Virus record (IMG/VR): IMGVR_UViG_3300036719_006047
Coordinates: 1 to 64,000 of that record
Reading direction: 5' to 3' (one strand)
Source of the DNA: a virus
Length of the DNA: 64,000 nucleotides
A program made the translations under genes and the position numbers. A model generated the notes under the pieces. That model was not told where the DNA came from, did no database searches, and saw only the letters and a program-made list of their open reading frames with translations. Positions 34,608 through 54,497 of the stretch are shown piece after piece (the stretch's first letter is position 1; each line of letters starts with the position of its first letter).

Positions 34608-36368
34608 GTGCTACAGCGGTTTGCGAGGTGTTCTGTGCGTCACCAAAACACATTTACAGCTAACTTCATTCTCGTTCCTTACGCGCCTTCCCGGCGAAAC
34701 CCTGAGCGAGTCCTGTCTCCTGACCAAGCTTCTGCCGTAGAAGACATCAAAAATCTCATTTTAGCGCACTTCGAAAACAAAGCTCCGAAAGAGCACTTGG
34801 CGCTGGTCCTGACGGGCCCGGCAGGCACAGGCAAGACCACGATTGTAGATGCTCTCGTGAAACAGCTCGGGGATGCTGCTATCTTCTCGTATGCAGCTCC
34901 TACAGGAAAAGCTGCTGTCCGCTTGGCCGAATCGGTAGGCCAAGAAGCCCAGACGCTGCATCAGGTCATCTATGGCGCTCCGACAGAGCTGGGGCGCTGC
35001 CCGAAGTGCAACAAGTTCTCACAAGAGCTGGGCGTCTCGCAGAAAGAGGCGAAGCAGGCGGGAGGCTACAAGTGCCCCTCTTGCTCAGCTCGCTATCCCG
35101 CTACCAGTACATTCGAAACAAAGCTCGGCTTCGCGAAAGCGGACAGAGAGAAGGCAGCAGTCACCCAAGGCCCGCGTCCTCTCTTGATCGTGGACGAATC
35201 CTCCATGATCGGGCCTCAGATCTACGATGACTTGCTCGAAGCCACTCCCGTCACCACTCCGATCTTGTTTGTCGGTGACCGGGAACAGCTCGAGCCTGTT
35301 TTGTCGGCAGAAGAGAAGAGCAAGTACCCGGGCCAAATCTGGGGTCCCGACTTGGCTTCTCCGACGCAGAACCTCACTCAGATTCACAGGCAAGCTGCAG
35401 GCAGCCCCATCATCAACCTGGCGACGCGGGTACGCCTGGGCAAGAACGCTCATTCTCCCTTTGCACTTGATCCGGGTTTTTCGGGTTCATCTGATCTCGT
35501 GGTGCGGCGAGGAAGAGCACTTGACGCGGCCAAGTGGATCGCGGACATGCGAAAAAACCGACAGGATGCTACTGTTTTGGCTTTCACGAACAAAGAGTGC
35601 GCGGACGTCAACAGGGAAGCGAGAAAGTTGTTGGGTCTCGACGAAAAGAGCTACGCGGAATCTGTGGCAGCCGTGCGGTCCGACAGACTTCTGGTTTTGC
35701 GCAACAACCGTGGCTACGGCCGAATGAACGGAGAAGTGCTCGTCGTCAATGCTTCTTTCCGAGGCCCTGTTGTAGAAGGACAAGCAACCACATGGGTGCA
35801 GTTTATCGATTCGCCTGAGTGGGTGCTCACGGCCAACTCTCTTTACGGTCAGACGTCGCCGCAGGAGCGGCAGTCCGCGCAGAACAACATTCAATTCGAC
35901 TTCCAGGCGCCATTGGGGTCTTGGATCTCATACGTCAAGTCCATTGCGAAATCTGATGAAAACAAAGCATATGGCGTGAAGCCTGTTGACACTGAGTATT
36001 ACGACATCCTCGCGAAAGCTGGCACAGCAGACCGCAACGTGGCAGAGTCGGCTGGCCTCAGGGACAAGAAAGCGAAGAAGACGCTCGCTCAGTACGACGA
36101 GATGGCTAAGATTTTCGCAGTGCCTGATGCAGTCGAAGAGATCTACGCGAAGACAGGAATGCTCGCCGCAGACTTGCTCTTCGTCGATTACGGGCAGTGT
36201 CTTACGGTGCACAAGAGCCAAGGGTCTCAATGGAATTATGTCGCACTTCTCGCGGGGTACGCGTTCCACAAAGCTTGGGAGAATCCTGCCTCTTCCGAAA
36301 GCATGCGCAGATGGTTATACACTGCCGTCACTCGAGCGGCGAAGAAGTTGATCGTCTTCGCTGGGTGA
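34608..36368 (+). CDS. RecD/Dda-like SF1B helicase with Zn-finger insertion
   Basis: TGPAGTGKTT, APTGKAA, TLHQ, VDESSM, VGDREQL, LTQIHRQ, TVHKSQGSQW, YTAVTRA; CPKC...CPSC insert; start uncertain (GTG). Confidence 0.88.
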   Translation: MLQRFARCSVRHQNTFTANFILVPYAPSRRNPERVLSPDQASAVEDIKNLILAHFENKAPKEHLALVLTGPAGTGKTTIVDALVKQLGDAAIFSYAAPTGKAAVRLAESVGQEAQTLHQVIYGAPTELGRCPKCNKFSQELGVSQKEAKQAGGYKCPSCSARYPATSTFETKLGFAKADREKAAVTQGPRPLLIVDESSMIGPQIYDDLLEATPVTTPILFVGDREQLEPVLSAEEKSKYPGQIWGPDLASPTQNLTQIHRQAAGSPIINLATRVRLGKNAHSPFALDPGFSGSSDLVVRRGRALDAAKWIADMRKNRQDATVLAFTNKECADVNREARKLLGLDEKSYAESVAAVRSDRLLVLRNNRGYGRMNGEVLVVNASFRGPVVEGQATTWVQFIDSPEWVLTANSLYGQTSPQERQSAQNNIQFDFQAPLGSWISYVKSIAKSDENKAYGVKPVDTEYYDILAKAGTADRNVAESAGLRDKKAKKTLAQYDEMAKIFAVPDAVEEIYAKTGMLAADLLFVDYGQCLTVHKSQGSQWNYVALLAGYAFHKAWENPASSESMRRWLYTAVTRAAKKLIVFAG

Positions 36369-37546: not shown

Positions 37547-38419
37547 CTACCCGATGCCCCCGATCACATCGTCGTCGTCCCTCTCGTGAGATGTTTGGCG
37601 AGAGGAGGCACGAGCTCTCGTGTAGTCTTCAGGCACTTCTTCCTCTTCAAAGCCGTAGTAAGTCTCCTCGAAAGGCGGAGCGTCGTCTTGCCAGGAAGGA
37701 GGAGGCCCGTACTCCCAGGGATCTACTGTGCGTGAGGAGTGATGACGAGACTGGCGCGGAGGGGGAGCACTCTCTTGGCGCGGAGGGGGAGCACTCTCTT
37801 GGCGCGGAGGGGGAGCACTCTCTTGACGCGGAGGAGCGCCCGGCTTTTTAGCGTCTTTCTTGTTGAGCTTGCGCAAGATCTCTTCGGCTTTTTCGGGCGA
37901 GTAGCAGAACTTGTGGCCAAGCTCGGTCATGTAAGGGGAGCCGTCGTCGTTGAAGAACTGCAGGCAGACGCGGCCCGTCCGGTCGCGGCCTTCGCGGTAC
38001 TGAGGGTTGTCTCTGTTGCGGGCCATGAGTGCCTCCGAGATGACTTCTTTCGTTCTGGGAACGAGGTCGTACTTGCTGAGTTCGTCTTCAGACACGAAAA
38101 CAGCTTGAGTGTGCTCGTAGTTTAGCTTCACGCACCCGCTGTGAGGAGCATGTACGTTACCTTCGTGTGCCACGAAGTAGATGAAGAAGACGTTACCTTC
38201 AGTCTTTGCCGTCAAAAACTTCAAGTGACTCGGGTTCACGATCAACCCGGCTTCTTCTTGAAGCTCTCGTGAAGCTGCTTCGACTGAACTTTCTCCTTCT
38301 TCCACTTTCCCGCCAGGCAAGCCCCATTTGTTGGGCATCCAAGGCGCAGTCGGCCCTCGCTTGAGCAGCAGTACCTTCTTGCTGTTTGTTACGACGATGA
38401 CGCCGGCTGCGTGCTTCAT
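37547..38419 (-). CDS. NUDIX hydrolase with C-terminal extension
   Basis: Nudix box PGGKVEEGESSVEAASRELQEEAG; extension after ARNRDNP. Confidence 0.88.
   Translation of the reverse strand: MKHAAGVIVVTNSKKVLLLKRGPTAPWMPNKWGLPGGKVEEGESSVEAASRELQEEAGLIVNPSHLKFLTAKTEGNVFFIYFVAHEGNVHAPHSGCVKLNYEHTQAVFVSEDELSKYDLVPRTKEVISEALMARNRDNPQYREGRDRTGRVCLQFFNDDGSPYMTELGHKFCYSPEKAEEILRKLNKKDAKKPGAPPRQESAPPPRQESAPPPRQESAPPPRQSRHHSSRTVDPWEYGPPPSWQDDAPPFEETYYGFEEEEVPEDYTRARASSRQTSHERDDDDVIGGIG
37752..37834. repeat. 24-bp tandem repeat (~3.5 copies) encoding RQESAPPP
   Basis: TGGCGCGGAGGGGGAGCACTCTCT x3 plus a partial copy. Confidence 0.9.
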
Positions 38420-38425
38420 TGTATT

Positions 38426-38833
38426 TTACTTACCCGGGTACTTGGTGATCAAGTGCTGTAGTTTTTCTTGGATGTAAGCGTGAATCATGGGCGCGCGGGT
38501 ATCCAGTTCGGACAGCCCGTTCCCCAGACCACGACGAGGCAAGATCACTCTTCCGTTTTTCTCGAGATGAGCTTCAATCTCAGCAATCCTTGCGTCGATG
38601 CGGTCTTTCACGCTTTCGAAGTCTTCGTCGGAGAAGAAAGCATCTGCTTTCATGCTAGGAGACCACTTTGTTGGGATCCCTACTGCGTTCTTTTCGCCTC
38701 GCATCTCCCTCGCCTGACCGCCAAAGCCTCTCTCCTCCATGTTGTCCCCGAACACGTATAGCGTGCTCGGGTTCGCGCGAAGGTGGTGCTTCTCGATCCA
38801 GTCTTGGAAGTAGATGCCACTCGCCATTGTCAT
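38426..38833 (-). CDS. Conserved phage-type protein (FGDN...GxGGQA...R...NA.GIPTK motif)
   Basis: Motif recalled from large-phage hypothetical proteins; function unknown. Confidence 0.6.
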   Translation of the reverse strand: MTMASGIYFQDWIEKHHLRANPSTLYVFGDNMEERGFGGQAREMRGEKNAVGIPTKWSPSMKADAFFSDEDFESVKDRIDARIAEIEAHLEKNGRVILPRRGLGNGLSELDTRAPMIHAYIQEKLQHLITKYPGK

Positions 38834-41688
38834 TTCCTCTTGTTGATTAGCCTTTGAAGCACAGCGTATTCTTTCTTGTCTGCGGTAAAAGCAGCTCGTC
38901 CGCCAGTAAGTACTGAAGCGATGCGAGCATCAGCCCAACTCTTTTGCGAAGCGCCTGGTCTGTGTCCGCCCGAGGCCCAAGCGGCAAGACCTTTTCTGTA
39001 TACCTGTTTCAGCGCTTCCGTCAATGTCTGTACGTCTGCGGCCGACGGCTTACGCCCCGTGTAGTGCTTGAGCGCCTTCTCTGCGACTACGCTAAGGTCG
39101 TCATTCGATTGAGAGACGTCGAAACCCCTCTTCATCGCTTCCTTTCTGTAGGGGGACAGTTTGACGAGTCCCATCGAGCGCGCGATTCTGTCTGTCTCCG
39201 GAGGGGTGAAATCCCCTCTCCAATAAGCATCGCGGCTCTCGCCGAGCTCTCTTTCTCTTTTCGCTCTGAGCTCAGGCGGCAGTCCCGCCAAGTACTTTTC
39301 GGGGATTAGACGACCTTGCGGATCAGTTCCGTCCGGATTTCGCTTCTGCTTCCGCACGGGAGGAACGTAATCATAGTATTCGTCGTCATCGTCTTTGTCT
39401 TCTTCGTCGTACTGCTGGTAAAGCACAGACTTGTCGGAAGGAACTGCGTCGATGACGGGGATGCCCAAAGCATCGAGTGAATTTTTGATCTCTTGGTAGT
39501 AGGGGTGAGTCCTGTATATCACCAGAACTTTCATCTTCGCGTTGGCGGGCGACAAAAATGATTCTGTCCACGCTTCCACCTTGCCTTCTGTCGGCGTGAA
39601 GCCAGCTTGAGGCTCAGTGCTTGCTATTCTCATGCCGCTTGAATCTTGGTATGACCACACATCTCCTTCTGCTTGAAGTCTCGTTGTTCCCTCGAAGATG
39701 CCTACAGCTTTGTTCCTATCGTCACCATGCCGCAAGAAGATAGTTTTCGACTCCTCCAAGTCTGATACGGCCAGTTCTCGCTTCATCCGCAAGAAGTGCT
39801 TCCATTGCGACACACTTCGCGGAATCTTGTCTTTGAAGTTGAACACGTGAGCCCAGACACCGTACTTTCCGGGCTTCATGTAGGGGTCTGGTTCTCCTGC
39901 TTTTTCCCGCCTCAACCGCTCGAGCGTATCTGCTCTGCCCGCCGGAACAGTAGGCCCCTTAGGGTATTCTATTTGTACCCTGCTCCATCTTTCGTCTTCT
40001 CTTCTTTTCGCTTCTCTCAGCGCTTCTGCGTTTGCGATCTGCTCGCTCGCCTTTCTGTGTATTTCGTACTTTTGCACTTCCTCTTGGACAGAAGGAGGGC
40101 GCTTGAACCAATACTTTTCGAATTCAGTACCCTTTACCATAGAAAACAAGTCTCTTTCCACGGAACCATAATAGTCTTCGTTCGTCTCTGACTCTTCGTA
40201 CTGTAAACCTTCCAGCGCTTCATAAGACAAAAGGTTGAAATTTTCTTTGGCTATGCTCAGCAAGCGGTAAACCATGTTGTTTGCCTCTTCTTCTGTCAGA
40301 GGCACTTTTTCGCTATAAATGGATTGTCTTGCCTGAGACGCAAAGGGTCTGTTCGTAGTGAGGAAGTACGCAAAATGCTCTATCTCATTTTTTGTTTGTT
40401 GCTCTGAAGGAGGAAATGTTGCATGCCATCTGCCGATGTTTTGGTGGAGCAACTGTGACGGGTACCCGTATGTTCTGTAACCTCCTGACCCCCATCCCCC
40501 CGCTATGCCGTAAATCAAACCCAAAACAGTGCAAAAGAATTTGATCTGCTCTCTCTCGTTCATGGGGTTGTTCCGCGCAGAACTTCCGCTAACCCAAGCT
40601 TGACCTGCGTCTCCACCCCAATTCAGCCATGCCATGTAGCCTCTGCTGGGACTTCTGTCGTCGCCAAAACCGCTGCTTCGCTTGTCCTTGCGGTGCCGAG
40701 AAAAGTAGTTCCTCATGCGACCCATCGTTGTGCTCGATACCCCTGGCTGGGTGGCCAACTGGATAGCTCGTGCGATCCCGATGAAGTTCCACGCGCCGTA
40801 GTTGTTGGCGTGAGACAGAGCCAGACCGTGCATGGCTTCTTCGCGCACAGCAGGAGGCACTTTGTTGCCTCCTGAAGCTGTATCGTTGGACCTGTTGCCC
40901 CCTGCTGTGATTCCTAAGACCTTGAGCGCGTTGGTGAGGTTGAGGCTCAGCGACCCTGAGGCTTGACCCGTTGCGCGCAGGTCTGCAACCCCGGATTCGA
41001 ATTGACGTCTCCAATCAGAGGGAGCAGACGATAACCATCTTTCGATAATGCGTTTATTCTGTTCGGGGTCAGTGTAATCCTGAGGATTGACGCGAGCGGC
41101 GTGCGCGATTTGGGCCCAGGCTGTTTGTTGCGTCTTCCTGTTCGGTGATGTAACACGGATGTTGAGGCTACTACCTCTTCTGTCTACTTGAGTATGCGGG
41201 ATATGTCTCATGGCTGCTTCCCATTTCGTCAGTCTGGCAGGATCGCCTTGAATGCCTATGTAGCCGTGATTGTGCTGTTCTTTTAGTTTTTTGTCGATGT
41301 CGCGCAACGAATGGAGTGCTACCTCGTAGGAGGGATCTCGCCACAGAACATGTTCCCCCGTCTCTGTGTTCCGCAGCATCAACCCTGTTGTGCTGACGCG
41401 GCTCTGGTCTTCGATAAGCTGTTTTTGAAGTCTCTTTACGTAGTTCGCGTCGTACTCATGCCCTGCGCAAGAAGGCAACGTACGCAAACCTTTGCTCGTA
41501 GCGGCTTCGAGCAACGGAATGAGAGGGCGGTCTATCGTTGTGGTTACTTCCTTGGCCACGGTCTTTGGCTGGCGTCGAGGTGCGTGGTAGAACCATCGAA
41601 CGCCTGTTCTGAGCGGCTCGAACCACTCTTTGTCGGAGAATGAATCAGGCGGAACGTAGTCGGCGTAAAATCTACTTTTCTCTCTCAT
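38830..41688 (-). CDS. 952-aa multidomain (polyprotein-like) protein
   Basis: Four apparent modules separated by RVNP, RNNP and KRNP: a T..SC.GH domain, a WLNWGGDAG domain, an unknown domain and a VYRKGLAAWASGGHRPGA domain. Confidence 0.75.
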   Translation of the reverse strand: MREKSRFYADYVPPDSFSDKEWFEPLRTGVRWFYHAPRRQPKTVAKEVTTTIDRPLIPLLEAATSKGLRTLPSCAGHEYDANYVKRLQKQLIEDQSRVSTTGLMLRNTETGEHVLWRDPSYEVALHSLRDIDKKLKEQHNHGYIGIQGDPARLTKWEAAMRHIPHTQVDRRGSSLNIRVTSPNRKTQQTAWAQIAHAARVNPQDYTDPEQNKRIIERWLSSAPSDWRRQFESGVADLRATGQASGSLSLNLTNALKVLGITAGGNRSNDTASGGNKVPPAVREEAMHGLALSHANNYGAWNFIGIARAIQLATQPGVSSTTMGRMRNYFSRHRKDKRSSGFGDDRSPSRGYMAWLNWGGDAGQAWVSGSSARNNPMNEREQIKFFCTVLGLIYGIAGGWGSGGYRTYGYPSQLLHQNIGRWHATFPPSEQQTKNEIEHFAYFLTTNRPFASQARQSIYSEKVPLTEEEANNMVYRLLSIAKENFNLLSYEALEGLQYEESETNEDYYGSVERDLFSMVKGTEFEKYWFKRPPSVQEEVQKYEIHRKASEQIANAEALREAKRREDERWSRVQIEYPKGPTVPAGRADTLERLRREKAGEPDPYMKPGKYGVWAHVFNFKDKIPRSVSQWKHFLRMKRELAVSDLEESKTIFLRHGDDRNKAVGIFEGTTRLQAEGDVWSYQDSSGMRIASTEPQAGFTPTEGKVEAWTESFLSPANAKMKVLVIYRTHPYYQEIKNSLDALGIPVIDAVPSDKSVLYQQYDEEDKDDDDEYYDYVPPVRKQKRNPDGTDPQGRLIPEKYLAGLPPELRAKRERELGESRDAYWRGDFTPPETDRIARSMGLVKLSPYRKEAMKRGFDVSQSNDDLSVVAEKALKHYTGRKPSAADVQTLTEALKQVYRKGLAAWASGGHRPGASQKSWADARIASVLTGGRAAFTADKKEYAVLQRLINKRK

Positions 41689-41842: not shown

Positions 41843-43432
41843 ATGCGCACCAAGAACTTCGCCAGAATGAACCCGGCAGTCGAGCTTGCTCGTGACTACG
41901 CGGTGCCCGGTGCCGTTCGAATTCGGTCGAACCCCTCGGGCGACGTGTACGCTCCGCTGCAAGGCCTTAAGGGCGCGCCGCCTTCCGTTCTTCGCCACAT
42001 TCACGGCAGACGCGGTCGCCACAATCCGATGGACGTCAAGAGCGCCACGGGTGCGGGTCAGCACGGTCTTCAGCTGAACTCGGAGCAGATTTCTGTTCTG
42101 CTCAAGAGGGCCGTCGACATCAACAAGAAGATCTCGGAAAGTGGTGGTTCTCCTCTTCCCATCTGCATCTGGGGAAGCCACGGTCTGGGCAAGACCACTC
42201 TTGTCCGGTCGCTCGTGAAGAACGATCCTGACATGAAGGGGACTGGCGTCTACGCTGACACAGGCAAGATCGCTTACATCGCGCCAGCTCAGTTCGAAGA
42301 CCCGGGTGATCTGCTGGGTCTGCCCTACAAGGAAGGCGGCCGCACGAAGTACGCTAAGCCCGAGTGGGTCCCTGATGTCGAGGGCCCAGGCATCCTCTTG
42401 ATTGACGACTTCAACCGCGCTGATTCTCGTCTCCTCAAGGCGATGATGCAGCTTTTCCAGGACAGGGGTCTCGCGGGGTGGAAGCTTAAGGACGGCTGGA
42501 TGATTGTCGCTACTGCAAACCCGTCAGAGGGCGGCGAGTACGACGTCTCTGAGCTCGACCCTGCGATGCTGACCCGCATGATGCACGTCGAGATGATCTT
42601 CGACATCGACGTCTGGAAGAACTGGGCCACGTCCAAGAAGAAGGACAAGGACGAGCCGAACGTTGATCCCCGTGCGGTTGGGTGGATGATCACGGAGGGT
42701 AAAGACTTCCTCGGAACAGGGAGCAAGTATCCTCGGACCACTCCAAGAACGGTCGATATGCTCTTCGAGCAGCTTCGTTCTATCCCTGACTGGTCCAAAG
42801 AGCTTACGCTGGTCAAGCAGTACGCTTTTGGTCTGCTGGACGAAGCGCCCGCTGAAAAGTTCGTAGCCTACGCGAGAGAGCTCAAAGCAGACGAGCTGCC
42901 CGAGCCTGAAGTGCTTCTCTCCTCTAACGACATCGTCCCTCTGCTGGAGAACATGAAGAATATCTTGGCCAAAGACACGGGTATGCCGGACACTGTTCGG
43001 TTCAACGAGTACCTCGCTACGAGGTTCATCCCTTACGTTATGCCCAATGTTGCTCGGAACAATTCCCGTGCTCGGCGCAACAACTCTGATTCAGCTCTTC
43101 GTGTTCAGCAAGAAAATCTTTTGCGCTTCCTGCTCTACCCTCATTTCCCGAAGGAGAGCCTGACACCTTTGTTCCGCCAGCTTGTTGACGCCCACAGCGT
43201 GGATCACGAGGTGCCTGTTGCTCCTTTTGCCCAAGCGTTTACGCTGGACAAGGGCCAAAACGTGCTAGCTCTCGGTGTCATCAAGCGATTTGCGACCAAT
43301 GCTGACCCCAGCATCTGGACCGAGCCCAGCGTCGTCGAGCAGATGAAAGATCTTCGCACCTTAGCTGGATTCGACCTCGCTCAGCAAAATCCTCGCTTTC
43401 GGGTTCCAGTTCGTCGCAGCTACTACCGCTGA
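41843..43432 (+). CDS. MoxR-like AAA+ ATPase
   Basis: IWGSHGLGKT, LLIDDFNRA, ATANP, DPAMLTRM; basic N-terminal leader with three R-x-NP. Confidence 0.85.
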   Translation: MRTKNFARMNPAVELARDYAVPGAVRIRSNPSGDVYAPLQGLKGAPPSVLRHIHGRRGRHNPMDVKSATGAGQHGLQLNSEQISVLLKRAVDINKKISESGGSPLPICIWGSHGLGKTTLVRSLVKNDPDMKGTGVYADTGKIAYIAPAQFEDPGDLLGLPYKEGGRTKYAKPEWVPDVEGPGILLIDDFNRADSRLLKAMMQLFQDRGLAGWKLKDGWMIVATANPSEGGEYDVSELDPAMLTRMMHVEMIFDIDVWKNWATSKKKDKDEPNVDPRAVGWMITEGKDFLGTGSKYPRTTPRTVDMLFEQLRSIPDWSKELTLVKQYAFGLLDEAPAEKFVAYARELKADELPEPEVLLSSNDIVPLLENMKNILAKDTGMPDTVRFNEYLATRFIPYVMPNVARNNSRARRNNSDSALRVQQENLLRFLLYPHFPKESLTPLFRQLVDAHSVDHEVPVAPFAQAFTLDKGQNVLALGVIKRFATNADPSIWTEPSVVEQMKDLRTLAGFDLAQQNPRFRVPVRRSYYR

Positions 43433-43444: not shown

Positions 43445-45076
43445 ATGAGTATCGCTGAGCACATCGCTTCGGTTGAGTCTCAGCTCACTGAAGCGCAGAG
43501 AAAGAAACTAATCGTTCAGCTGCAGCGGCAGCTGAGTGATAGTTTGGTTCTGCTGTACAACCGAAACAGGTTTTATTTCTATTTCATCAGTCAGATTGCT
43601 ACTTACACGGCAGGGTTCACAAAGAACGGCACGACTACAGCTGCTGTTCGGGTCAAAAAATCAAGCGATAAAAGTTCGGTGAAGTTTGAGTTTTTAGCGA
43701 ACCCTATATTTTTCGACCTCATGACTGAAGAAGAGCGGCTTGGCGTTGTTGTGCATGAGCTGCTGCACATCGTCCACAGGCACATTCAGCGCGCGTCTGC
43801 TTTTGCGTCTGACTTCCGCGTCCTCAACTTCGCCGCAGACATCATCAACAACAGGGACATTTTGACCTACACCCACAACTACAAAGACCCTTACCGGCGC
43901 GTGCAAGAGGGTATTGATCTCCCCCGTATGTGTATTCTTGACGGTCTGTTCGATTTCCGCGGCAAAGAGACAAGTACGACTGATGAGATCTACGCCATCC
44001 TCATCGAGGCGAAGAGGCAGGCTAAAGTCAAAGGTCCCATGTCCGAAGCCGAAAGAGATGCTTTTTTGGCCAAGCATCCCGGTTTAGCGGAAGAGCCTAC
44101 TCCTCAGAACAGATTCGGTTTGTCCCCTTCCCAACCGACTTTGGGCATGGACCCCGAAGAATACTACAGATTTTCTCTGGGTGATAAAGACGGCAAAGGC
44201 GGAAGCGGTGGTTCGGGAAGCGGTGACGAGGAAGAAGATGATTCGTCTTCTGGAGACGGCTCTGATGCCTCAGACAGAGACAACTCTGATGCCGTTGGCG
44301 GGCACAGCGACCACTCACACTGGGAAGAAGATAGCGACAATTTCGACGGCCAAAACCAATATGGCGAGGACCTCGACAAAGAAGCGCAGGGCAAGATCAA
44401 CCGCGCTCTCGTTGATGCCGCTAGAAAGTCAGACTTTAATGGTGTCCCCGGTTCTCTCTCTGGCTTTCTCCGCGAGCTCATGAAGGGCCAAGCCCCCTTG
44501 CAGGACTGGAGAGCTATCCTGAGAATGCAGGTTGCGAGCAGTGCTTCGATTCGCAAGAAGACGACTTCTATGAAAGAGAGCCGTCGCTTCCCTCGGGAGC
44601 CCGGACTTCCTGGAGGGATGGGCACCAAAACTCTGCGCGATGTCAATGTGACTGTTGCAGTGGATACTAGCGGATCCATTGACCAAGAAATCTTGGCTCA
44701 GTTCATGGCTGAGATCGGGAAGATGCAGAAGAGCAACGCTGAAGTAAGCTTGTTCTTTTTCCACCAGGACGTTTACGGCCTCGACAAAGGCGGGAAGCCT
44801 GCTCTCTTTAAGAAGTTCGATGTTAACACATTCAATATGGAATCAGGCGGTACGGACTTCACGCCCCCCTTCCGAGTCGTCAAACAGCTTAGCAAAAAGC
44901 CTGATCTGTTTATCCTTCTGACAGACGGCATCGCTCCGCCTCCCGAGGTCAACCTCGGCACAGTTAAATACCTTTGGGCCATCTATGGGGGGCCAGGCGC
45001 AACGCAGGAAAGCCTGAAGGCAGATCCACACGTGAAAGCTTTGCCCGGCAAGAAAATCTACTTGGCTAACAAGTAG
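43445..45076 (+). CDS. HExxH metallopeptidase-like plus VWA domain protein (DUF2201-type), MoxR partner
   Basis: VVVHELLH, acidic linker, MIDAS VDTSGSI, GGTDF, LTDG. Confidence 0.85.
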   Translation: MSIAEHIASVESQLTEAQRKKLIVQLQRQLSDSLVLLYNRNRFYFYFISQIATYTAGFTKNGTTTAAVRVKKSSDKSSVKFEFLANPIFFDLMTEEERLGVVVHELLHIVHRHIQRASAFASDFRVLNFAADIINNRDILTYTHNYKDPYRRVQEGIDLPRMCILDGLFDFRGKETSTTDEIYAILIEAKRQAKVKGPMSEAERDAFLAKHPGLAEEPTPQNRFGLSPSQPTLGMDPEEYYRFSLGDKDGKGGSGGSGSGDEEEDDSSSGDGSDASDRDNSDAVGGHSDHSHWEEDSDNFDGQNQYGEDLDKEAQGKINRALVDAARKSDFNGVPGSLSGFLRELMKGQAPLQDWRAILRMQVASSASIRKKTTSMKESRRFPREPGLPGGMGTKTLRDVNVTVAVDTSGSIDQEILAQFMAEIGKMQKSNAEVSLFFFHQDVYGLDKGGKPALFKKFDVNTFNMESGGTDFTPPFRVVKQLSKKPDLFILLTDGIAPPPEVNLGTVKYLWAIYGGPGATQESLKADPHVKALPGKKIYLANK

Positions 45077-46474: not shown

Positions 46475-46936
46475 CTACATCTCGATCAGGTTGAGCTTGA
46501 ACGTCTTTATTACGAGCTTTCCGTCAGAATCGGATTGCGCCACAAGTCTATTTTCGCTTTCTGTTCGCGTTTGTCTCAGGTCCAGCAGAATAAGTCCTTT
46601 CATCTCGTTGAGTGTTGGCATGTTTGTCTGCCACAAGGTCTCGTTAATGTCTGCTTCCGCAAAGTTTGTTCCTGTCAGCTTGCTCGCGGTAAACTGAGCT
46701 CCTACCAAAGTAGCTCCGCTAAAGTTTGAGTTCGTGAAGTCCACGAAATCGTAATTGCTGAAGCTCAAGTCCAAATCAGAGAGGTCCAAGTTGGTGAAAT
46801 CGCTATACTGTTCGCCTTCTTTTCTCTTTATTTCTGGCTGTTCTTCTCCTGCCCCTTGCCCGCTGTGATCCCACTCGGAACACTTATCCGCAAAATCGAT
46901 GAGAAACACAACGCGGGGGTCAGACATATCGGCCAC
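46475..46936 (-). CDS. DPRV-family pentapeptide-repeat protein, copy 1 (divergent, terminal)
   Basis: MADMSDPRV start, degenerate repeats, SDGKLVIKT tail. Confidence 0.85.
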   Translation of the reverse strand: MADMSDPRVVFLIDFADKCSEWDHSGQGAGEEQPEIKRKEGEQYSDFTNLDLSDLDLSFSNYDFVDFTNSNFSGATLVGAQFTASKLTGTNFAEADINETLWQTNMPTLNEMKGLILLDLRQTRTESENRLVAQSDSDGKLVIKTFKLNLIEM

Positions 46937-46944
46937 GGGTCACC

Positions 46945-47664
46945 TCAGTACCGCAAGGAGATACGCTTGATGCGTAGTTTACCGTCTTCTTCTGGCTGAA
47001 GCAAAAGATGTGGCTTCGCTTCGTCTTCAGCTGTAGGACTGGTCAGTAAAATTACATTGGCGCCCTTGAGGTTGGCGCGAGTGAGGTTGGCGCGAGTGAG
47101 GTTGGCACCAGCAAGATCGACGCGGGTCAGGTCGGCGGCGTAGAGGATGGCGCCGCTGAGGTCGGCGCGGCTGAGGTCGGCGCGGCTGAGGTTGGCGCTG
47201 TGGAGGCTGGCTTCGCTGAGGTTGGCGCCGATGAGCTTGGCGCCGATGAGCTTGGCGCCGTTGAGGTCGGCGTGTTCGAGGTCGGCGCCGTTGAGCTTCG
47301 CGCGGGCGAGGACGGCTTCTTCGAGGACGGCTTCTTCGAGGTTGGCGCCATCAAGGTTGGCGCCAGTGAGCTTGGCGCCGCGGAGGTCGGCGCCGCTAAG
47401 GTTGGCACCGCTGAGGTTAGCGCCTTTGAGCTTGGCGTCGATGAGGCCGGCGTCGGTGAGGTCGGCGCCGCCGAGCTTGGCGCCGGTGAGGTCGGCGCCG
47501 ATGAGGTTGGTAGTTTTGAGGTTTTCGCCGATGAGGTTGATATCAGACAGATCTTTGAGGTCAGACGGCAACAGCGGAATCTGCGATTTTTCTGCTTCAG
47601 CAACTCTGCATTCTTCTGCGTGAGACAGAACGCGAGGCACGCGAGGATCGGACATGTCTGCCAT
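46945..47664 (-). CDS. DPRV-family pentapeptide-repeat protein, copy 2
   Basis: [10 protein letters not shown](D/N/K)L(T/S)G pentads, [22 protein letters not shown] tail. Confidence 0.92.
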   Translation of the reverse strand: MADMSDPRVPRVLSHAEECRVAEAEKSQIPLLPSDLKDLSDINLIGENLKTTNLIGADLTGAKLGGADLTDAGLIDAKLKGANLSGANLSGADLRGAKLTGANLDGANLEEAVLEEAVLARAKLNGADLEHADLNGAKLIGAKLIGANLSEASLHSANLSRADLSRADLSGAILYAADLTRVDLAGANLTRANLTRANLKGANVILLTSPTAEDEAKPHLLLQPEEDGKLRIKRISLRY

Positions 47665-47672
47665 GGGTCACC

Positions 47673-48194
47673 TCAATAGCGTAGAGAAATACGTTTAATT
47701 TGTAATTTACCATCTTTTTCGGGTTGAAGCAGAAGATGTGGCTTCCGCTCGACGCTGGCAGGGCGGGTCAGTAGAATTACATTGCTGCTATTGAATTTAG
47801 TACCGCTAAACTTGGCGTTGGTGAGGTCGGCGCCGTTGAGCTTGGCGCCGGTGAGGTTGGTGCCGGTGAGCCTGGCGCCGGTGAGGTTGGCGCCGGTGAG
47901 GTTGGCGCCTTTGAGTTTGGCGTCGAAGAGGTCGGCTCCGGTGAGGTCGGCGTCGGTGAGGTCGGCGCCGGTGAGGTTGGCGCCCTGCAAGGAAGCGAGG
48001 GTGAGATCAGCGTTGGTGAGTTTGGCGCCAAGGAGGTTGGTGGTGTTGAGGTTGGCGTGGCTGAGGCTGATATTAGACAGATCTTTTAGTTCAGGCGGCA
48101 ATGACATAACAGGCCATTTTTGCACCACAGCTGAGCGACAAGCTTGTGCATGAGCGAGGACAAGTGGAACTCGGGGGTCAGACATGTCTGCCAT
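47673..48194 (-). CDS. DPRV-family pentapeptide-repeat protein, copy 3
   Basis: Same caps; [22 protein letters not shown]. Confidence 0.92.
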
Positions 48195-48202
48195 GGGTCA
48201 CC

Positions 48203-48907
48203 TCAGTATTGCAAAGGGATACGTTTAATTTGTAGTTTACCATCTTTTTCGGGCTGAAGCAGAAGATGAGGCCCCGGTCTAAAATTACCCGTGGGGTTGG
48301 TCAGCAGAATTGCATTGGCGCCCGTGAGGTCGGCGCGGCGGAGGTTGGTGCCGGTCAGGTTGGCGCCGGTGAGGTTGGCACCGGTGAGGTCGGCGCCGGT
48401 GAGGTCGGCGTTGCTGAGGTTGGCGCCGTTGAGGTCGGCGCCGTTGAGCTTCGCGTTGGCGAGGTAGGCGCTTTCGAGGTCAGCGTTGGTGAGGTTGGCG
48501 TCTTTGAGGTTGGCGCTGCTGAGCCAGGCGCCTTTGAGGTCGGCGCCGGTGAGGTTGGCGCTGTAGAGCTTGGCGCCGTTGAGGTCGGCGCCGGTGAGGA
48601 TGGCGCCTCTGAGGTCGGCGCCGTTAAGATAGGAGTGGTTGAGGGTGGTGCCGGTCAGGTCGGCGCCGCCGAGGTTGGCGCCGGTGAGGTTGGCGCCGCT
48701 GAGGTTGGCGTTGGTGAGGTTGGCATTGGTGAGGTTGGCGTTGGTGAGGTTAGCGTCGCTGAGGTTGGCGCCGGTGAGGTCGATGCTAGACAGATCTCGG
48801 AGATCGTTAGGTAAGTCCGGTCTATCCTTGCCTTGATCAACAGACTGTCTACAAGCTTCTGCATGAGCGAGGACAAGAGGAACGCGGGGGTCAGACATAT
48901 CGGCCAC
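48203..48907 (-). CDS. DPRV-family pentapeptide-repeat protein, copy 4
   Basis: Same caps; [22 protein letters not shown]. Confidence 0.92.
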
Positions 48908-48915
48908 GGGTCACC

Positions 48916-49599
48916 TCAGTACCTGAAGATGCGAGTCTTGATGCGAACTTTGCCGTCGGAGTGAAGCTCAACAACAAGATTCTTGCTCGCATTATCACTG
49001 GCTCCGACTCGCGCCGAACCAAGCATAATAAACTTTTGTGCTACGTCTTGCGGGAAGCCCGCCACGGCCACGTACAAGTATCTTCCTTCCGCTAACTGTG
49101 ACTGCGTGATCTTGGCTCCTTTCAACTCGGCGAAACCTATTTTCGCATTAGTGACATTTGCGCCAGTTAGGTCAGCGTCAGTGAAGTCTGTGTCATGTAG
49201 CACTGAGCCAGTGAGGTCAGCTTTACTCAAATTCGCTTCGCTCAAGTTAGCTTTGTCTAGTTTGGCGTAACGCAATACAGCAGAGCTGAGATTCGCGCCG
49301 ATGAGGTCTGCTCCGCTCAGATCGCAGTTCATCAGATTCGCTCTACTCAAGTTTGCTTTCTTTAGCTTTGCGCCGCGAAGCACAGCATTCCTCAAGTCGA
49401 CGCCGCTCAGATCAGACCCAGTGAAATCAACTCCCGCGAAGTTGGCAGAGCTGAGAACAGCTCCGCTTAGATCTATTCCAGGCAAAGAGGTCAACTCTTG
49501 GGGTAAATCGGGCTTCTCTTCCAGAAATTGAGCAGCTTCTTTGCAGACTTCCGCATAGGCAAGGACGGCTTCGACGCGAGGATCAGACATGTCCGCCAT
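48916..49599 (-). CDS. DPRV-family pentapeptide-repeat protein, copy 5
   Basis: Same N-cap; NLVVELHSDGKVRIKTRIFRY. Confidence 0.92.
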   Translation of the reverse strand: MADMSDPRVEAVLAYAEVCKEAAQFLEEKPDLPQELTSLPGIDLSGAVLSSANFAGVDFTGSDLSGVDLRNAVLRGAKLKKANLSRANLMNCDLSGADLIGANLSSAVLRYAKLDKANLSEANLSKADLTGSVLHDTDFTDADLTGANVTNAKIGFAELKGAKITQSQLAEGRYLYVAVAGFPQDVAQKFIMLGSARVGASDNASKNLVVELHSDGKVRIKTRIFRY

Positions 49600-49607
49600 A
49601 GCCTACC

Positions 49608-50060
49608 TCACTCATCGTCCATTCGGAGTTGAGTAGCCCTGATCCTAACCTTTCCTGTCTCAGCTACCTGCGCGATCAATCTCGGTCTTCTGAGCTCTTC
49701 TGATATTTTCATGTATTGTTCGCCCAGGAGTATAAGACCTTTCACTGTTTCTAGATTTTTTCTGGGCAAACCCATACCTTCGATGTTGGCTCCTGTGAAG
49801 TTTGCTCCCTTTATGTTGGCTTTATACATGTACGTTCTGCTCAAATCACAACCTGTAAAATTTGTTTCGCTCAAGTCAGCACCATGGAAATCTAAACTAC
49901 TCAAAGTGGCAAAGCTCATGTCCGCTTTAGACAAATCTAACTTTTTCATGTCTCCTCTTCTGTGTGGGAATTGAGGTCTTTCCTTTCCTTCCTTGAGCGC
50001 TATCCTGCAGCGCTCGGCGTGCTTTAGCAAGTAGACAACGCGGGGGTCAGACATGTCCAT
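49608..50060 (-). CDS. DPRV-family pentapeptide-repeat protein, copy 6 (short, divergent)
   Basis: MDMSDPRV; degenerate pentads; AETGKVRIRAT tail. Confidence 0.88.
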   Translation of the reverse strand: MDMSDPRVVYLLKHAERCRIALKEGKERPQFPHRRGDMKKLDLSKADMSFATLSSLDFHGADLSETNFTGCDLSRTYMYKANIKGANFTGANIEGMGLPRKNLETVKGLILLGEQYMKISEELRRPRLIAQVAETGKVRIRATQLRMDDE

Positions 50061-50068
50061 GAATCAGC

Positions 50069-50980
50069 TCAGTACTTGAAGATGGGAGTTTTGATGTGAA
50101 GTTTGCCGTCTGAGCGCAGTTCGACAACAAGTCTCTTTTTGGACTTTCGTTTCCAGGACGCAGGCGCTGGTTCGTGGGGCAAAATAACTTTTTCAGCTAC
50201 TTCTTTGGGGTAACCGTCTTGCGGTACATTGACATACTCTGCGCTATTCAATTGAATTTGAGTAATCTTCGCATCGGTCAAGTCGGCAAAACCTATTTGG
50301 GCGCGGTTGAGCTTGGCGCCGTAGAGGTGGGCGGCGCTGAGGTTGGCGCGAGTAAGGTTGGTCCCGGTGAGGTCGGCGCCGTAGAGCTTGGCGCGGGTGA
50401 GGTCGGCGCCCGTGAGGAAGGCGCCGGTGAGGTTGGCATCGGTGAGGTCAGCGTCTTCGAGGATGGCGCCGCCGAGCTTGGCGCCGGTGAGGTCGGCGCC
50501 GATGAGCTTGGCGCCGGTGAGGTTGGCGCCGGTGAGGTTGGCACCTTTGAGTTTGGCGCCATCAAGGTTGGCGCCAGTGAGCTTGGCGCCGCGGAGGTCG
50601 GCGCCGCTAAGGTTGGCGCCGGTGAAGTCGGCGCGGGTAATGTTGGCGTTGTAGAGGATAGCGGTGTAGAGGTTGGCTTTGGTGAGGTCGGCGCCTCCGA
50701 GGCTGGCGCCGTAGAGGTTGGCGCCGGTGAGGTTGGCACCGCTGAGGTTGGCGTTGGTGAGGTTGGCGCCGATGAGGTTGGCGCCGGTGAGGTTGGTGCC
50801 GCTGAGGTCGGCTTCGGCGAGGTTGGCGCCGGCGAGGTCGGCGCCGGTGAGGTCGATGCCAGAAAGATCTTTTAGCTCATGCGGCAGAGGAGGTATGCTC
50901 TTTTTCCACCACTTAGCTTCTCGACAAGCCTCTGCGTGAGCGAGGACAGCGATAACGCGGGGGTCGGACATGTTGGCCAT
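50069..50980 (-). CDS. DPRV-family pentapeptide-repeat protein, copy 7
   Basis: MANMSDPRV; [22 protein letters not shown]. Confidence 0.92.
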
Positions 50981-50983
50981 GAA

Positions 50984-53818
50984 TCACTTCGATCTCGATT
51001 TGCTGCTAGCTTCTTGTGTGTTGAGTTGATGCATCCTTCTTTCCGCCTCTGCTGCAGTAGCGAAAGTGAGGAGGTCAGGCATCACTCTGTAAACGATGGG
51101 CCCCGAGAAGATGTCACTCTTCTCTGCGATGACGCGACGCGGCCCTGACTTCCTACCTACCGCTAGCATCTTTTCGTAGCGTACACGCTTAGCCCAAAAC
51201 TCAGCAGGATCGGCGATTATCTTTTCTACAGCTCTTTCGCGGCTCTCGGGTGTCGGCATGTTTGTGCCAGGAATGAGGAAGGGATAGGAATGCCTCCTTC
51301 CGGCAATCTGAAAAGCTCTTTGCTTTGCTTCTTCAGGACTGTAGCCTTCTCTCAAACCTGACTCAAAGATGGCCAACCGCATCCGTCGAATTTGCTCTTC
51401 GTACGGATCGAGCACCTCGATGCCGTCTTCTTTGGGGTTGGTGTTTGCCGTCTGTTTGTCTTTGGGCGCCTTGGCGTTGATGTTGTCGTAGCGCAGCCTC
51501 ATGACCTGTTCTGGCATCAATTCAGCCATCAAGATATGCAGATAGTCTCTAACGTTGACGCCTGCTCCTTTACCTGAACCTTCTTCGAGCAAAGTCTTGA
51601 ACTCAATCGGCATCTCGTTGAGCACTTGAGCCGGCTTTCTGTTGTACGAAGGCGCCGAAGAATAATCGTCTTGCGGTCCTTCCCCCAAAACGAGGCGCGT
51701 GTGGTTGCGCTTCTTCTCGATTCGGCTCATCAACGCAAACGAGAAAGGATCGTTGGGGATGACGTAGATGATTTTGGGCTCTACGTTCTGCTCGGGCCGG
51801 TTGATGCGGTCTTCTGCTTGCGCTTCGATGCCGGGGTTCGGCATGCGCTGAATGAACAACAGCGTGTCTGCTGCGCTCAGGTTCAACCCTTCGCTGCCTG
51901 CTCGGGTCAAGATGACAATGGCTCTCTTGTCCTTCGCGTCAAGTTTTTCGGGGAACCTCAGACGTCGGCTCAACTCATCGAAGTCGCTGTATTCGTCTCC
52001 AAGCTTCTTTGCGGCTGACTGCGGCGTCTTGATCGGCTCGAGCACACTCGACTTCTTTTCTGCCATGCTTACGCGAGAAGCGTCTGCAACGTAAATCCTG
52101 ATGTTCGGGAATGCCTCTCTCAGCTTCTCAAAAAGCTTCTTCACGACGTCTTTGTGGTAAGCAAAGATAACCATCGGCCTGTCGAAATCTTTGTTCTCCG
52201 TGTTGTTTATTCTGTTTGACACAGCAGCGATCGTGCCATCGATCACGCTGGTGCCCATTCCTTTCATGAGAGTCGGAGGGATTGGGATGTAACCGCCGTA
52301 AAGCAGTTTCTTCAGCTTGTCCTTGAACACGGCGACGACAGCAGGGCTGAGTACTTCAGCCGCTGGTCTGCCTTTGTTTTTCGTCAGGTAAGCGTCGAAT
52401 TCCTGGAACACCTTTGAGGCTGCGTTGATCTTTTTTGCGTATTCTGCTTTGTCGGACGCCTTTCCACTCTTCCGCGAAGATCTTGCGATGACCTCTTTCG
52501 ACTTCTCGATAGCGGCCATAACTTCTTCGATTCTCTGGCTGTCAGGCGGCAGAATCAGGTAGGCTCTCTTCTTCTCTCTGAGCTGGAAACGAGCCAAAGC
52601 TCCAGTCTCTACAGCAAGTCGCCTGGGGTGACGAGTGCCCTTCGCGTACAACTCTTTTTGCAGCTTTTTCTGGGGCTCCTCGTTCTCCCAGTCCTTGAAC
52701 GTGATGTGACCTGTCCTTGAGAGCGTCATATCGTCGAAGTTCAGTCCTGTCTTGGCAGACAAGAAAATCGCTTCGAGCGACTTCGCCATCTGCTCGTCTG
52801 CGACAGGGTAGTCGTGGTAAGGAACCTCACCCACCGGCTCGAGCATGTTCAGAATGCTGGCAAGCTCTCCTGGGTCGTTGAGCATCGGTGTGCCCGTCAA
52901 CGCCAGCACGTGGGGGATGTAGTTCGCCAAATAGTAGCAGACTTTTGTGTTTTCCGAGCCGTAGTACTTCAACCTGTGGGCTTCGTCGAACACAATGGTC
53001 TTGATCTTGGCTGTGATCAGGTCACGAACTTCGACCGCTTCTTTTTGCTGTGCAGGAGTTGGTAACTTTAGTCTTTTGCTTTTTGCCACGACCTCCTCGA
53101 CAGGCTCGCTCTCGTCCTCCATATCGTCCAAGCTTGATGCAAGCTCAACTCTATCTTCCTTTGCGCCGAACGCTGTGTAGTACTCGGGCAGGGCTCTGCC
53201 GGCATAAGCTCCTGCGGGCCAAAGTAACGTTCTCAGCATCTCATAGGTAACCAGAATTACACTGTTTTCGTTAGCTTCTTCGACCGTTCTTCTGAGCCTG
53301 TTTGATGCCTCTACCTCGACTACAGTGTAGTTTGTTCTCAGCGCAAAAGTGTTTTTCCAAGAAGGCAGAGCGCTTCTCGGACAAACAACGAGGGCAGGCA
53401 AGTAACTCTCTGTGTCCGTCTCGAGCGTTTGGCCCGCATCGCCTGCGGCAATCGTCAAAACAGCTGTAGTTGTCTTTCCTAAGCCCATAGGATCGAACAA
53501 GCCCGCTCTGCCGCCTCGGTACAAAGCGAACAGCATCCCGGCCATCTGGTAGGGCAAGGCTGGTTGGCCTTTGCTGTAAAACTTCTTCGCCTTGATAGCA
53601 TTATCGAGAACGGCTTTAGCGGCCGCATCGATCTTCTCGTAATCCTCTCCCGAGAAGCCGTACTTCTCGTTGATGATACCCGGATAGCGCGAGATCTTGC
53701 TCCCTGTGTCGGGAGTGATCTCTGCTACAGGACTTAAATTCTGCTTTTTGCCTCTCTTTGCGGGAGGGTTTTTGCGGAAGATGACTTCTCGGTCCGGGAG
53801 AAGAGCGATGCGGTACAT
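50984..53818 (-). CDS. Second SNF2-family helicase-like protein, embedded in the pentapeptide array
   Basis: DPMGLGKT, VVCPRS, FDEAHRLK, LTGTPMLN, EGLNL..AD, QAEDRINR; RKNP near N-terminus, NTNP before C-terminal module. Confidence 0.85.
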   Translation of the reverse strand: MYRIALLPDREVIFRKNPPAKRGKKQNLSPVAEITPDTGSKISRYPGIINEKYGFSGEDYEKIDAAAKAVLDNAIKAKKFYSKGQPALPYQMAGMLFALYRGGRAGLFDPMGLGKTTTAVLTIAAGDAGQTLETDTESYLPALVVCPRSALPSWKNTFALRTNYTVVEVEASNRLRRTVEEANENSVILVTYEMLRTLLWPAGAYAGRALPEYYTAFGAKEDRVELASSLDDMEDESEPVEEVVAKSKRLKLPTPAQQKEAVEVRDLITAKIKTIVFDEAHRLKYYGSENTKVCYYLANYIPHVLALTGTPMLNDPGELASILNMLEPVGEVPYHDYPVADEQMAKSLEAIFLSAKTGLNFDDMTLSRTGHITFKDWENEEPQKKLQKELYAKGTRHPRRLAVETGALARFQLREKKRAYLILPPDSQRIEEVMAAIEKSKEVIARSSRKSGKASDKAEYAKKINAASKVFQEFDAYLTKNKGRPAAEVLSPAVVAVFKDKLKKLLYGGYIPIPPTLMKGMGTSVIDGTIAAVSNRINNTENKDFDRPMVIFAYHKDVVKKLFEKLREAFPNIRIYVADASRVSMAEKKSSVLEPIKTPQSAAKKLGDEYSDFDELSRRLRFPEKLDAKDKRAIVILTRAGSEGLNLSAADTLLFIQRMPNPGIEAQAEDRINRPEQNVEPKIIYVIPNDPFSFALMSRIEKKRNHTRLVLGEGPQDDYSSAPSYNRKPAQVLNEMPIEFKTLLEEGSGKGAGVNVRDYLHILMAELMPEQVMRLRYDNINAKAPKDKQTANTNPKEDGIEVLDPYEEQIRRMRLAIFESGLREGYSPEEAKQRAFQIAGRRHSYPFLIPGTNMPTPESRERAVEKIIADPAEFWAKRVRYEKMLAVGRKSGPRRVIAEKSDIFSGPIVYRVMPDLLTFATAAEAERRMHQLNTQEASSKSRSK

Positions 53819-53820
53819 GA

Positions 53821-54165
53821 TTAGAACCCACCCACTGAGTTTCTGTTTTCAGGAGCCGGCCCGAAACGAACGATACCGTTCACGACCTGCTTCTTCTCGA
53901 GAAGGTCTCTCTCGGTCGAGCCGTCCTCGCCCAGCTTCTGCTGCAGTTCAGCAATACCTACAGGCTCTTTCCTGTGAACAGAGCTGTTGTAAGCTGCTGT
54001 CTGCGGCACGAAATGTGGCGCAGAGAAGTAACCTGCCACCCCTCCGGCCGCTGCCGCCACCAACGGGATGTTGGAGTCCTCGTCAGCTTCGTACTTCTTG
54101 CCCAAGAAGTACCCGAGAGCTGCTCCGATGGCCGCCCCTGCGAGGCGTGCTGTATTCTGGGTCAT
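53821..54165 (-). CDS. Small membrane protein with two Gly/Ala-rich TM segments
   Basis: Likely start ATG 54165; LAGAAIGAALGYFLG, LVAAAAGGVAGYF. Confidence 0.65.
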   Translation of the reverse strand: MTQNTARLAGAAIGAALGYFLGKKYEADEDSNIPLVAAAAGGVAGYFSAPHFVPQTAAYNSSVHRKEPVGIAELQQKLGEDGSTERDLLEKKQVVNGIVRFGPAPENRNSVGGF

Positions 54166-54293
54166 GGTGCCTCCAGTTCTGCCCACTGAGTCTCGCCTAA
54201 GTAGCGAGAACGCAGGGCATCCACGAGACACAATAGCCTTTGCCCGGTCTTTGGTCGCTTTACCGACCCGTCTTCGAGTGCTGCAGCTCTGCG

Positions 54294-54489
54294 TCAATAC
54301 TTTGAGACTCGATTCACGTTGTACAGAGCGTCTTCTCGCTTTAGGCTAATACTTCTTCTATTTTCTGCCTTTCGAGCTAAATCTCTTTGGCCGAAGGGGC
54401 TATAAGGTTGAGTTTGTTCTATCTGAATCGCTTCCTTGCACTATTTTTAGTGAGCTACAAGCTCGCCTGCGAGGGTCAGACATGCTCAT
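54294..54489 (-). pseudogene. Decayed 17th DPRV-family copy
   Basis: After the copy-8 stop and an 8-nt spacer: ATG AGC ATG TCT GAC CCT CGC (MSMSDPR), frameshift, LVAH*K*CKEA (cf. [11 protein letters not shown]), no pentads, ends AAG TAT TGA (KY*). Confidence 0.75.
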
Positions 54490-54497
54490 GCATCAGC

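Follow-up and report, generated by a model that had tools for sequence, protein, structure and literature searches.

Polyvalent proteins have been predicted to be processed into their constituent units and delivered together with the DNA (Iyer, Burroughs, Anand, de Souza and Aravind 2017; PMC5512222). Their processing was ascribed to an embedded zincin metallopeptidase (MPTase) and no linker motif was described, and the P1 proteins DarA and DdrB are reported to be processed and packaged (as cited in PMC5512222). Here we describe a four-module phage protein, the 952-residue product of an open reading frame (ORF) at positions 38830-41688 on the minus strand of a 64,000-nucleotide stretch of viral DNA (hereafter the window), which forms the first 64 kb of the linear 136.9-kb IMG/VR virus record IMGVR_UViG_3300036719_006047, estimated to be 85% complete. 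Like the polyvalent proteins, it is built from unrelated domains that also occur alone or in different combinations, and the relatives of its second module (module 2, counting from the N-terminus) carry ART-PolyVal (PF18760), Nudix, GNAT and helicase domains. Unlike them, it contains no MPTase and displays a conserved [RK]-x-N-P motif, which we call a seam, at its joints. We class it as polyvalent-type, with a seam motif that is previously undescribed (a literature search returned no account of an RxNP motif or of cleavage at Asn-Pro in phages).

Other systems share individual features with this protein. The MuF proteins (Mu gp30 and SPP1 gp7, with their effector and toxin fusions; PMC5512222) combine a head-associated domain with an open-ended variety of enzymes, as module 2 does; module 2 differs from them in having no MuF sequence match (the Pfam model Phage_Mu_F found none in it), and the presence of both a MuF-like and a module 2-like gene in one Vibrio phage indicates that the two are distinct. 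Polyproteins in which an S78 protease is fused to an HK97-like capsid are known to be cut during head maturation, and two such proteins, S-CBS1 gp04 and CRP-406 gp36, have the module 2 core at their N-terminus. The 952-residue protein, in contrast, carries neither a protease nor a capsid domain, has seams, and is located in a replication region. In phage T4, the internal proteins and Alt bear a capsid targeting sequence (CTS), a short terminal peptide present on unrelated proteins and removed by the head protease gp21, which cuts at (L/I)-x-E. The CTS is exclusively N-terminal, whereas [RK]-x-N-P is also found at internal and C-terminal positions and no protease is known for it. The asparagine peptide lyases (reovirus mu1, FlhB/YscU) break at the same dipeptide, but their sites are found inside folded self-processing domains, while the seams described here lie in variable, disordered linkers. 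Finally, viral polyproteins with a protease site code resemble the present case in marking the limits of functional units with a short conserved motif.

Asn-Pro seams lie at the module borders

Exactly three Asn-Pro dipeptides are present in the protein (1.97 would be expected from its composition), each preceded by Arg or Lys: AARVNP (N201-P202), SARNNP (N374-P375, followed by Met376) and QKRNP (N784-P785). A first-pass annotation of the window, made from the sequence alone, had proposed a gene of four modules joined at x-x-N-P, and every one of the three dipeptides indeed falls on a border that homologues define independently of the motif; the strings quoted in that proposal (PSCAGH, RMRNYFSRH, WLNWGGDAGQAW, IPEKYLAGL and VYRKGLAAWASGGHRPGA) are all present in the protein.

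At the first seam, the stand-alone homologues of module 1 (P0112-P0115, 199-210 amino acids long and 35-40% identical) end at the equivalent of residues 200-201, without N-P, and the relative P0006 carries LRRNP at the aligned position behind a different upstream module. In the AlphaFold2 (AF2) model of module 1 the last helix reaches residue 200 and N-P-Q is coil (AF2 was run on modules 1 and 2 separately, and a full-length MAFFT alignment misplaced the relatives of modules 1 and 3). At the second seam, stand-alone module 2 proteins of 155-170 amino acids end a few residues past a conserved '...WV', just before the seam; correspondingly, in the AF2 model of residues 204-375 the fold ends at residue 369 and only SARNNP has a predicted local distance difference test (pLDDT) score below 50. 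Seams 2 and 3 are both delimited by P0003 and P0133 (94-98% identical, from two separate ~12-kb contigs), in which residues 1-375 are joined directly to residues 784-952 and the linker reads WVEGRVTNNP-DGSDPQ, which differs from the linkers of the query and keeps N-P alone. Module 3 is thus present or absent as a whole unit, from N-P to N-P. At the third seam, P0006 (modules 2 and 3, 40% identity) terminates approximately at the KRNP of the query, with a basic tail, and in 19 of 24 distinct contexts of DUF5824, the domain that constitutes module 4, the conserved GRxIPE[KR] start has an N-P a few residues upstream (one DUF5824 gene begins MRRNP-TDLAGRHIPER).

The termini of stand-alone homologues, which the first-pass annotation had suggested comparing with the N-P sites, match them at all three seams, and the chance that three random positions would coincide with three such borders within ±6 amino acids is ~1.5e-5. 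The number of N-P dipeptides in this single protein is unremarkable in itself; the significance of the pattern lies in their placement and in its recurrence throughout the family. The notion of a common x-x-N-P linker between separable modules likewise holds, each module being found alone or in other combinations. We consider a modular architecture with a junction-specific motif to be near certain.

The motif is junction-specific across a large protein family

Relatives of module 2, either stand-alone or fused, number more than 100 and allow the association between the motif and the junctions to be counted. Of the 97 proteins that extend 40 or more residues beyond the module 2 fold, 78 have an N-P within the 20 residues that follow it, compared with 0 of the 30 that end there (P = 1.6e-16). 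On the other side of the fold, the dipeptide precedes it in 35 of 43 proteins with an upstream module and in 5 of 73 that start at that point. Among 66 non-redundant relatives, N-P was observed 193 times against 69 expected, a 2.8-fold excess, and DP, SP, GP and AP were not enriched. The surroundings of the dipeptide are enriched in Arg (3.6-fold) and Lys (2.7-fold) at position -2 and in Ala (2.1-fold) at -3, positions -3 to -1 being the only ones constrained family-wide. In addition, 24% of 478 homology breakpoints between non-identical proteins are no more than 5 residues from an N-P, as opposed to 6.8% of random positions. The A-[RK]-x-N-P seam is a disordered, conserved and junction-specific element across a large family of uncultured aquatic phage proteins. 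In the genome studied here the motif is clustered in five adjacent genes, where 8 of 13 N-P dipeptides have R at -2 (P = 5e-7).

A sceptical view would be that the pattern is over-read, given that three dipeptides is close to the expected number, that the excess of R-x-N-P over the whole genome is modest (13 observed against 6.5 expected, P = 0.016), and that one RANP, falling as it does within the Pfam domain of a DUF7831 neighbour, is probably fortuitous. This explanation has to contend with the placement of the three dipeptides on three borders, with the junction statistics of the family (P ~1e-16) and with the local island of motifs just described, and we regard coincidence as effectively refuted, with next to no probability left to it.

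The same data bear on whether the seam could be passive structural punctuation, that is, a basic helix end followed by Asn-Pro as a helix stop or Asx-Pro turn, forming an inert joint that spread along with the shuffled modules. Asn and Pro are helix-terminating residues; in the model of module 1 the last helix closes with A-R-V and the coil starts at N-P, and many seams follow helix-like sequence (SPMELL...KxNP), with Ala enriched at -3. However, D-P, S-P and G-P should serve equally well for this purpose, yet they are not enriched, and the motif is retained at N-termini that have no preceding helix. It is also kept in the leaders of the SNF2 helicases of the window and of locus L008, which share ~31% identity and nevertheless both carry [FY]R[RK]NPP at residues 13-18. 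The DNA beneath the seams is shared only as the codons CGN/AGR-NNN-AAY-CCN, which argues for selection on the peptide and not for linked inheritance; a seam acting as a nucleotide element is ruled out by the same observation. The specificity for Asn over Asp, Ser or Gly, together with the basic residue at -2, makes a helix-stop linker the less likely reading, and we judge it unlikely overall. The seam looks like a cut-here or dock-here signal.

Seams resemble gene boundaries

Helicase, Nudix and DUF5824 units are encoded by separate genes at some loci and are fused through seams at others. The single 997-residue ORF of the metagenome locus L014 corresponds to three consecutive ORFs in L016, a close relative. 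The fused form reads ...KA[KENP]QVYW...KA[RRNP]ELNWEIHGG, whereas, of the split genes, the first finishes with ...TA[KDNP] and a basic tail of 15 residues and its successor starts M-TR-LNWQCTT, which places the start codon of the separate gene 2-3 residues from the seam. The fused ORF (L014:1908-4901) and its split counterparts (L016:3093-6417) form a tandem array of ~110-residue repeat modules, each ending ...F.SPMELL......[KR]xNP.

Similar relationships are found in the immediate surroundings of the 952-residue gene (Table 1). The Dda-like helicase is a separate gene in the window, with a 28-residue leader followed by RRNP; its homologues in loci L037 and L057 align from residue 29 and are joined to module 2 by RRRNP within one 831-residue ORF. 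In the Nudix gene, the tail module (residues 137-188) is also found without Nudix, adjoining module 2, in loci L007 and L015. This protein (37547-38419, minus strand) additionally contains four tandem copies of APPPRQES in its C-terminal tail module, past the RDNP seam.

Across 71 related loci, 77 of 441 ORFs have an N-P within their first 40 residues, and many unrelated genes start M-(0-4 residues)-R-R-N-P. At the opposite end, the C-terminal tails that extend past the last N-P are Arg-rich or finish in a conserved ...YEPFHRRSD tag. These leaders (MRRNP...) and tails behave like propeptides or tags. The C-terminal peptide, more fully ...(F/Y)EVYEPFHRRS(G)D, follows an N-P seam on stand-alone module 2 proteins of ~200 residues (P0045, P0048, P0053, P0061, P0066, P0067, P0069, L014:650-1267 and L016:1831-2454) and is a candidate terminal tag. 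A further module 2 protein, of 1032 residues (L002:5860-8958, plus strand), contains LRMNPGP, one isolated 2A-like NPGP that was seen nowhere else.

Table 1. Modules and seams of the 952-residue protein and seam motifs in neighbouring genes (window coordinates).
Feature	Position	Strand	Basis
Module 1, residues 1-197, TYW3/DUF6919-like alpha/beta domain with invariant PSCAGH	41098..41688	-	Homologues and AF2 fold
Seam 1, A-R-V-N-P, residues 198-202	41083..41097	-	Visible in the sequence; module 1 homologues stop there
Module 2, residues 203-369, compact all-alpha domain	40582..41082	-	AF2, phrog_2859, >100 homologues
Seam 2, S-A-R-N-N-P, residues 370-375, then Met376	40564..40581	-	pLDDT <50; left edge of the module 3 indel
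Module 3, residues 376-780, rare, acidic low-complexity stretch at its end	39349..40563	-	Exhaustive HMMER search
Seam 3, Q-K-R-N-P, residues 781-785	39334..39348	-	Right edge of the P0003 indel
Module 4, residues 786-952, DUF5824	38833..39333	-	Pfam PF19141
RRNP, residues 29-32, leader of the Dda-like helicase (34608-36368)	34692..34703	+	PHROG helicase match starts at residue 34
RDNP, residues 136-139, joint between Nudix and tail module (gene 37547-38419)	38003..38014	-	Nudix Pfam match ends at residue 127
RMNP, RSNP and RHNP, residues 8-11, 28-31 and 59-62, ~96-residue leader of the MoxR-like ATPase (41843-43432)	41864..42028	+	ATPase core from about residue 97
RKNP, residues 15-18, leader of the SNF2 helicase (50984-53818)	53765..53776	-	L008 homologue carries YRRNPP at residue 13

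A probable capsid association of module 2

The sole PHROGs match of the 952-residue protein, phrog_2859, is in its second segment, for which AF2 produced an all-alpha model of high quality (mean pLDDT 94.8, predicted template modelling score (pTM) 0.91). A search for this fold in the PDB found no match, and a wide VIA search gave nothing above Z 3.8. The fusion partners of module 2 among its relatives comprise SOD, an NIF-type phosphatase, ChaC/GGCT, GNAT, ART-PolyVal (PF18760), Nudix, pentapeptide repeats, DUF5824 and a Dda-like helicase. Modules 2 and 4 do occur as small stand-alone viral proteins, in line with the resemblance suggested in the first-pass annotation. PHROG annotation of ten gene neighbours of module 2 gave mostly unknowns and SNF2 helicases, and scans of viral contigs for relatives yielded a single related contig.

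The last ~90 residues of module 2 match a domain of head genes by hhalign, with probabilities of 97.8% (E = 1e-12) and 98.6% (E = 5e-16), the targets being S-CBS1 gp04 and a Vibrio phage head-module protein. In cultured phages this core forms the N-terminal domain of ~800-residue genes that continue with a Peptidase_S78 prohead protease and an HK97-type capsid and are located directly after the portal gene. The domain content (core, protease and capsid) was checked in two of them, gp04 of the Synechococcus phage S-CBS1 and gp36 of the Roseobacter phage CRP-406, and tblastn placed the core under genes annotated 'major capsid protein' in S-CBS3 and six further CRP phages. In Vibrio phage 1.122.A the core is near the N-terminus of a 661-residue protein encoded between a MuF-like gene and the capsid gene, and in S-CBS4 it constitutes a 102-residue gene between the portal and head genes. 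The pattern is broken by the jumbo phage PaBG, whose copy of the core stands alone among replication genes. The homology of the module 2 core to the N-terminal domain of head protease/scaffold/capsid genes is a new observation, and the association with head modules suggests that module 2 is probably a capsid-associated domain.

Modules 1, 3 and 4

Module 1 had been described as TYW3-like, a proposal supported at the level of the fold but not of the sequence. Its PSCAGH string is invariant across five module 1 sequences, and it may correspond to the conserved S-x-S-C-x-G-R type of motif of TYW3. When the AF2 model (mean pLDDT 80.7) was compared with 48,161 PDB chains, Z scores of 8 or more were obtained only for 2dvk (10.0), 2qg3 (9.1), 2drv (8.8) and 1tlj (8.6), with 111-126 residues aligned at a root-mean-square deviation of about 5 Å. 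Of these, 2qg3 is annotated as TYW3 methyltransferase-like, and we take 2dvk, 2drv and 1tlj to be members of the TYW3 family. The next fold match was the S-adenosylmethionine-binding regulatory domain of MTHFR. The atlas lead for this module was DUF6919/MTHFR_C/TYW3, with TYW3 itself at rank 24 only (score 0.78). The TYW3 sequence model PF02676 gave no match to module 1 at E<=0.05, a PDB sequence search with the module 1 profile found none, and Foldseek against the PDB returned nothing significant for the models of either module 1 or module 2.

Module 3 is rare: an exhaustive HMMER search over 1.84 billion representatives recovered only P0002 (the same protein), P0006 and four weak matches, and neither Pfam nor PHROG matched it. 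An intein reading of this segment was rejected on account of its ends, as the module starts with Met and finishes ...KQKRNP before an Asp, with no Cys, Ser or Thr as first residue and no terminal His-Asn. P0002, which could be taken for a natural split gene starting at Met376, is an artefact of a truncated gene call and not a processing product, because its cluster holds many 5'-truncated calls with arbitrary internal starts. Internal initiation, at Met376 or at Met63 of the MoxR-like ATPase, was likewise rejected, there being no Shine-Dalgarno-like motif upstream of either (48 of 107 called starts have one).

Module 4 is the only recognised domain in a Pfam scan of the 952 residues, matching DUF5824 (PF19141) with 52.6 bits (cut-off 25) over profile positions 71-120 of 127 only. 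Its homologues follow module 2 or other modules in fusions, or stand at the N-terminus of other proteins. The same scan detected no peptidase domain, including no embedded zincin MPTase, and none of the four modules matched a domain typical of the polyvalent class.

Processing or docking at the seam

The reading that we favour is that module 2, whose core heads the prohead protease/scaffold/capsid genes of cultured phages, serves as a capsid-associated anchor, functionally MuF-like, and that the modules fused to it are cargo travelling with the capsid. The seam would then most likely be a processing site at which a protease separates the modules and trims the short leaders and the Arg-rich or tag-like tails, in effect doing the job of a gene boundary. 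A cleavage step at the seams together with a packaging role is quite possible, although we stop short of calling it probable, and the label 'polyprotein' for the 952-residue product is accordingly a hypothesis. We hold a more extensive version to be possible but more tentative: that [RK]-x-N-P serves a broad aquatic phage group as a dedicated code for processing, in which a protease or catalysed Asn-Pro lysis cuts cargo, leaders and tails and module 2 is a previously unrecognised anchor that loads the cargo in the capsid interior, so that fusion and splitting at seams would be functionally neutral and drive a rapid shuffling of effectors.

Several findings weigh against processing and packaging. 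Families S78, ClpP, S49 and C13 of proteases were not detected in the incomplete 137-kb record, which itself has no recognisable capsid gene (a search of the record for S77 gave no match, but none was obtained in control genomes either). The neighbouring pair of a MoxR-like ATPase and a zincin/VWA protein was considered as the reader of the seam and rejected for want of co-occurrence, a MoxR or DUF2201_N zincin/VWA gene being present within 10 kb of module 2 in 0 of 71 loci. The 952-residue gene is located in a replication/early region, outside any head module, and [RK]-x-N-P seams are missing from the cultured-phage genes that contain the module 2 core. N-P is lacking at about 20% of the junctions of module 2, and most endopeptidases disfavour Pro at P1'. 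Finally, cutting the products of the M-R-R-N-P genes would remove no more than 4-5 residues, and a cut site there seems to serve little purpose.

This last point leads directly to the idea that the seam is not cut at all, but is a short linear docking motif, placed in flexible linkers, leaders and tails, through which a common partner (a capsid-interior, portal, chaperone or DNA-associated factor) recruits proteins or modules. The motif stands at the extreme N-terminus of many unrelated genes and is carried by replication proteins of a single domain (Dda, SNF2, MoxR). Its tandem copies, SRSNPYQRSNP among them, hint at avidity, and its Arg-rich surroundings and the tails could suit the binding of nucleic acid or of an acidic surface. 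For the MRRNP N-termini and the tandem seams, a docking motif is no worse an explanation than a processing site. However, no partner has been identified, and the equivalence of seams and gene boundaries, together with the absence of the motif from terminal modules, is more simply explained by a separator. On balance we find docking somewhat unlikely.

A separation that involves no protease, either through 2A-like ribosomal skipping at N-P or through spontaneous or self-catalysed cyclisation of Asn that cleaves Asn-Pro, would also account for a separator. Asn-Pro is the scissile pair of self-cleaving proteins (N42-P43 in reovirus mu1, N-PTH in FlhB/YscU), and N-P is part of the NPGP of 2A peptides. 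Nevertheless, none of the three N-P dipeptides is followed by G-P, and neither a D(V/I)ExNPGP consensus nor a conserved upstream stretch of 15-20 residues is present, as skipping would demand; the known lyases, for their part, depend on a catalytic environment that is folded, in contrast to the disordered seam with its variable flanks. We consider both forms of this mechanism highly improbable.

Genomic setting

The genes around the 952-residue ORF encode replication and early functions (a 1601-residue DNA polymerase, helicases, ParB, Sak4 and a primase, with RIIA further on). In the remainder of the genome (64001-136910), the genes and families tested yielded no recognisable capsid, portal, terminase or prohead protease, and BLAST of the portal, terminase and capsid proteins of cultured phages against the related loci and the record gave no match. 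The structural module of this phage is therefore either absent from the record or so divergent that it escapes detection.

The genome has at least two MoxR-like ATPase genes (41843-43432 and 102083-103369), the triple RxNP leader being found only on the first, and two DUF2201_N zincin plus VWA genes (43445-45076 and 122694-123950; phrog_1297 and phrog_1314). A second and a third MoxR and zincin/VWA pair are likely at 102083-104538 and 121537-123950. The DNA polymerase (window 11776-16581, minus strand) shows short, strong PHROG matches to ribonucleotide reductase, PhoH and thymidylate synthase at residues ~359-513, and such unrelated matches inside a polymerase are the usual signature of an intein or homing-endonuclease insertion. 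Elsewhere in the window (46475-61137, minus strand), ~16 paralogous genes form a close array with 8-nt gaps, interrupted by the SNF2 helicase.

Implications

A new protease specificity with Pro beside the scissile bond or, alternatively, a universal linker that is not cut would be of interest to protein engineers. For phage biology, the link between module 2 and head genes offers a concrete, testable handle on the question of capsid cargo, to be addressed in cultured phages of Synechococcus, Roseobacter and Vibrio. Should a protease or a docking partner read the seam, the borders of modules, and with them hundreds of unknown effector domains, could be delimited directly from sequence, and the seam would represent a simple, portable rule by which many uncultured phages package, separate and exchange enzymes for host takeover and anti-defence.

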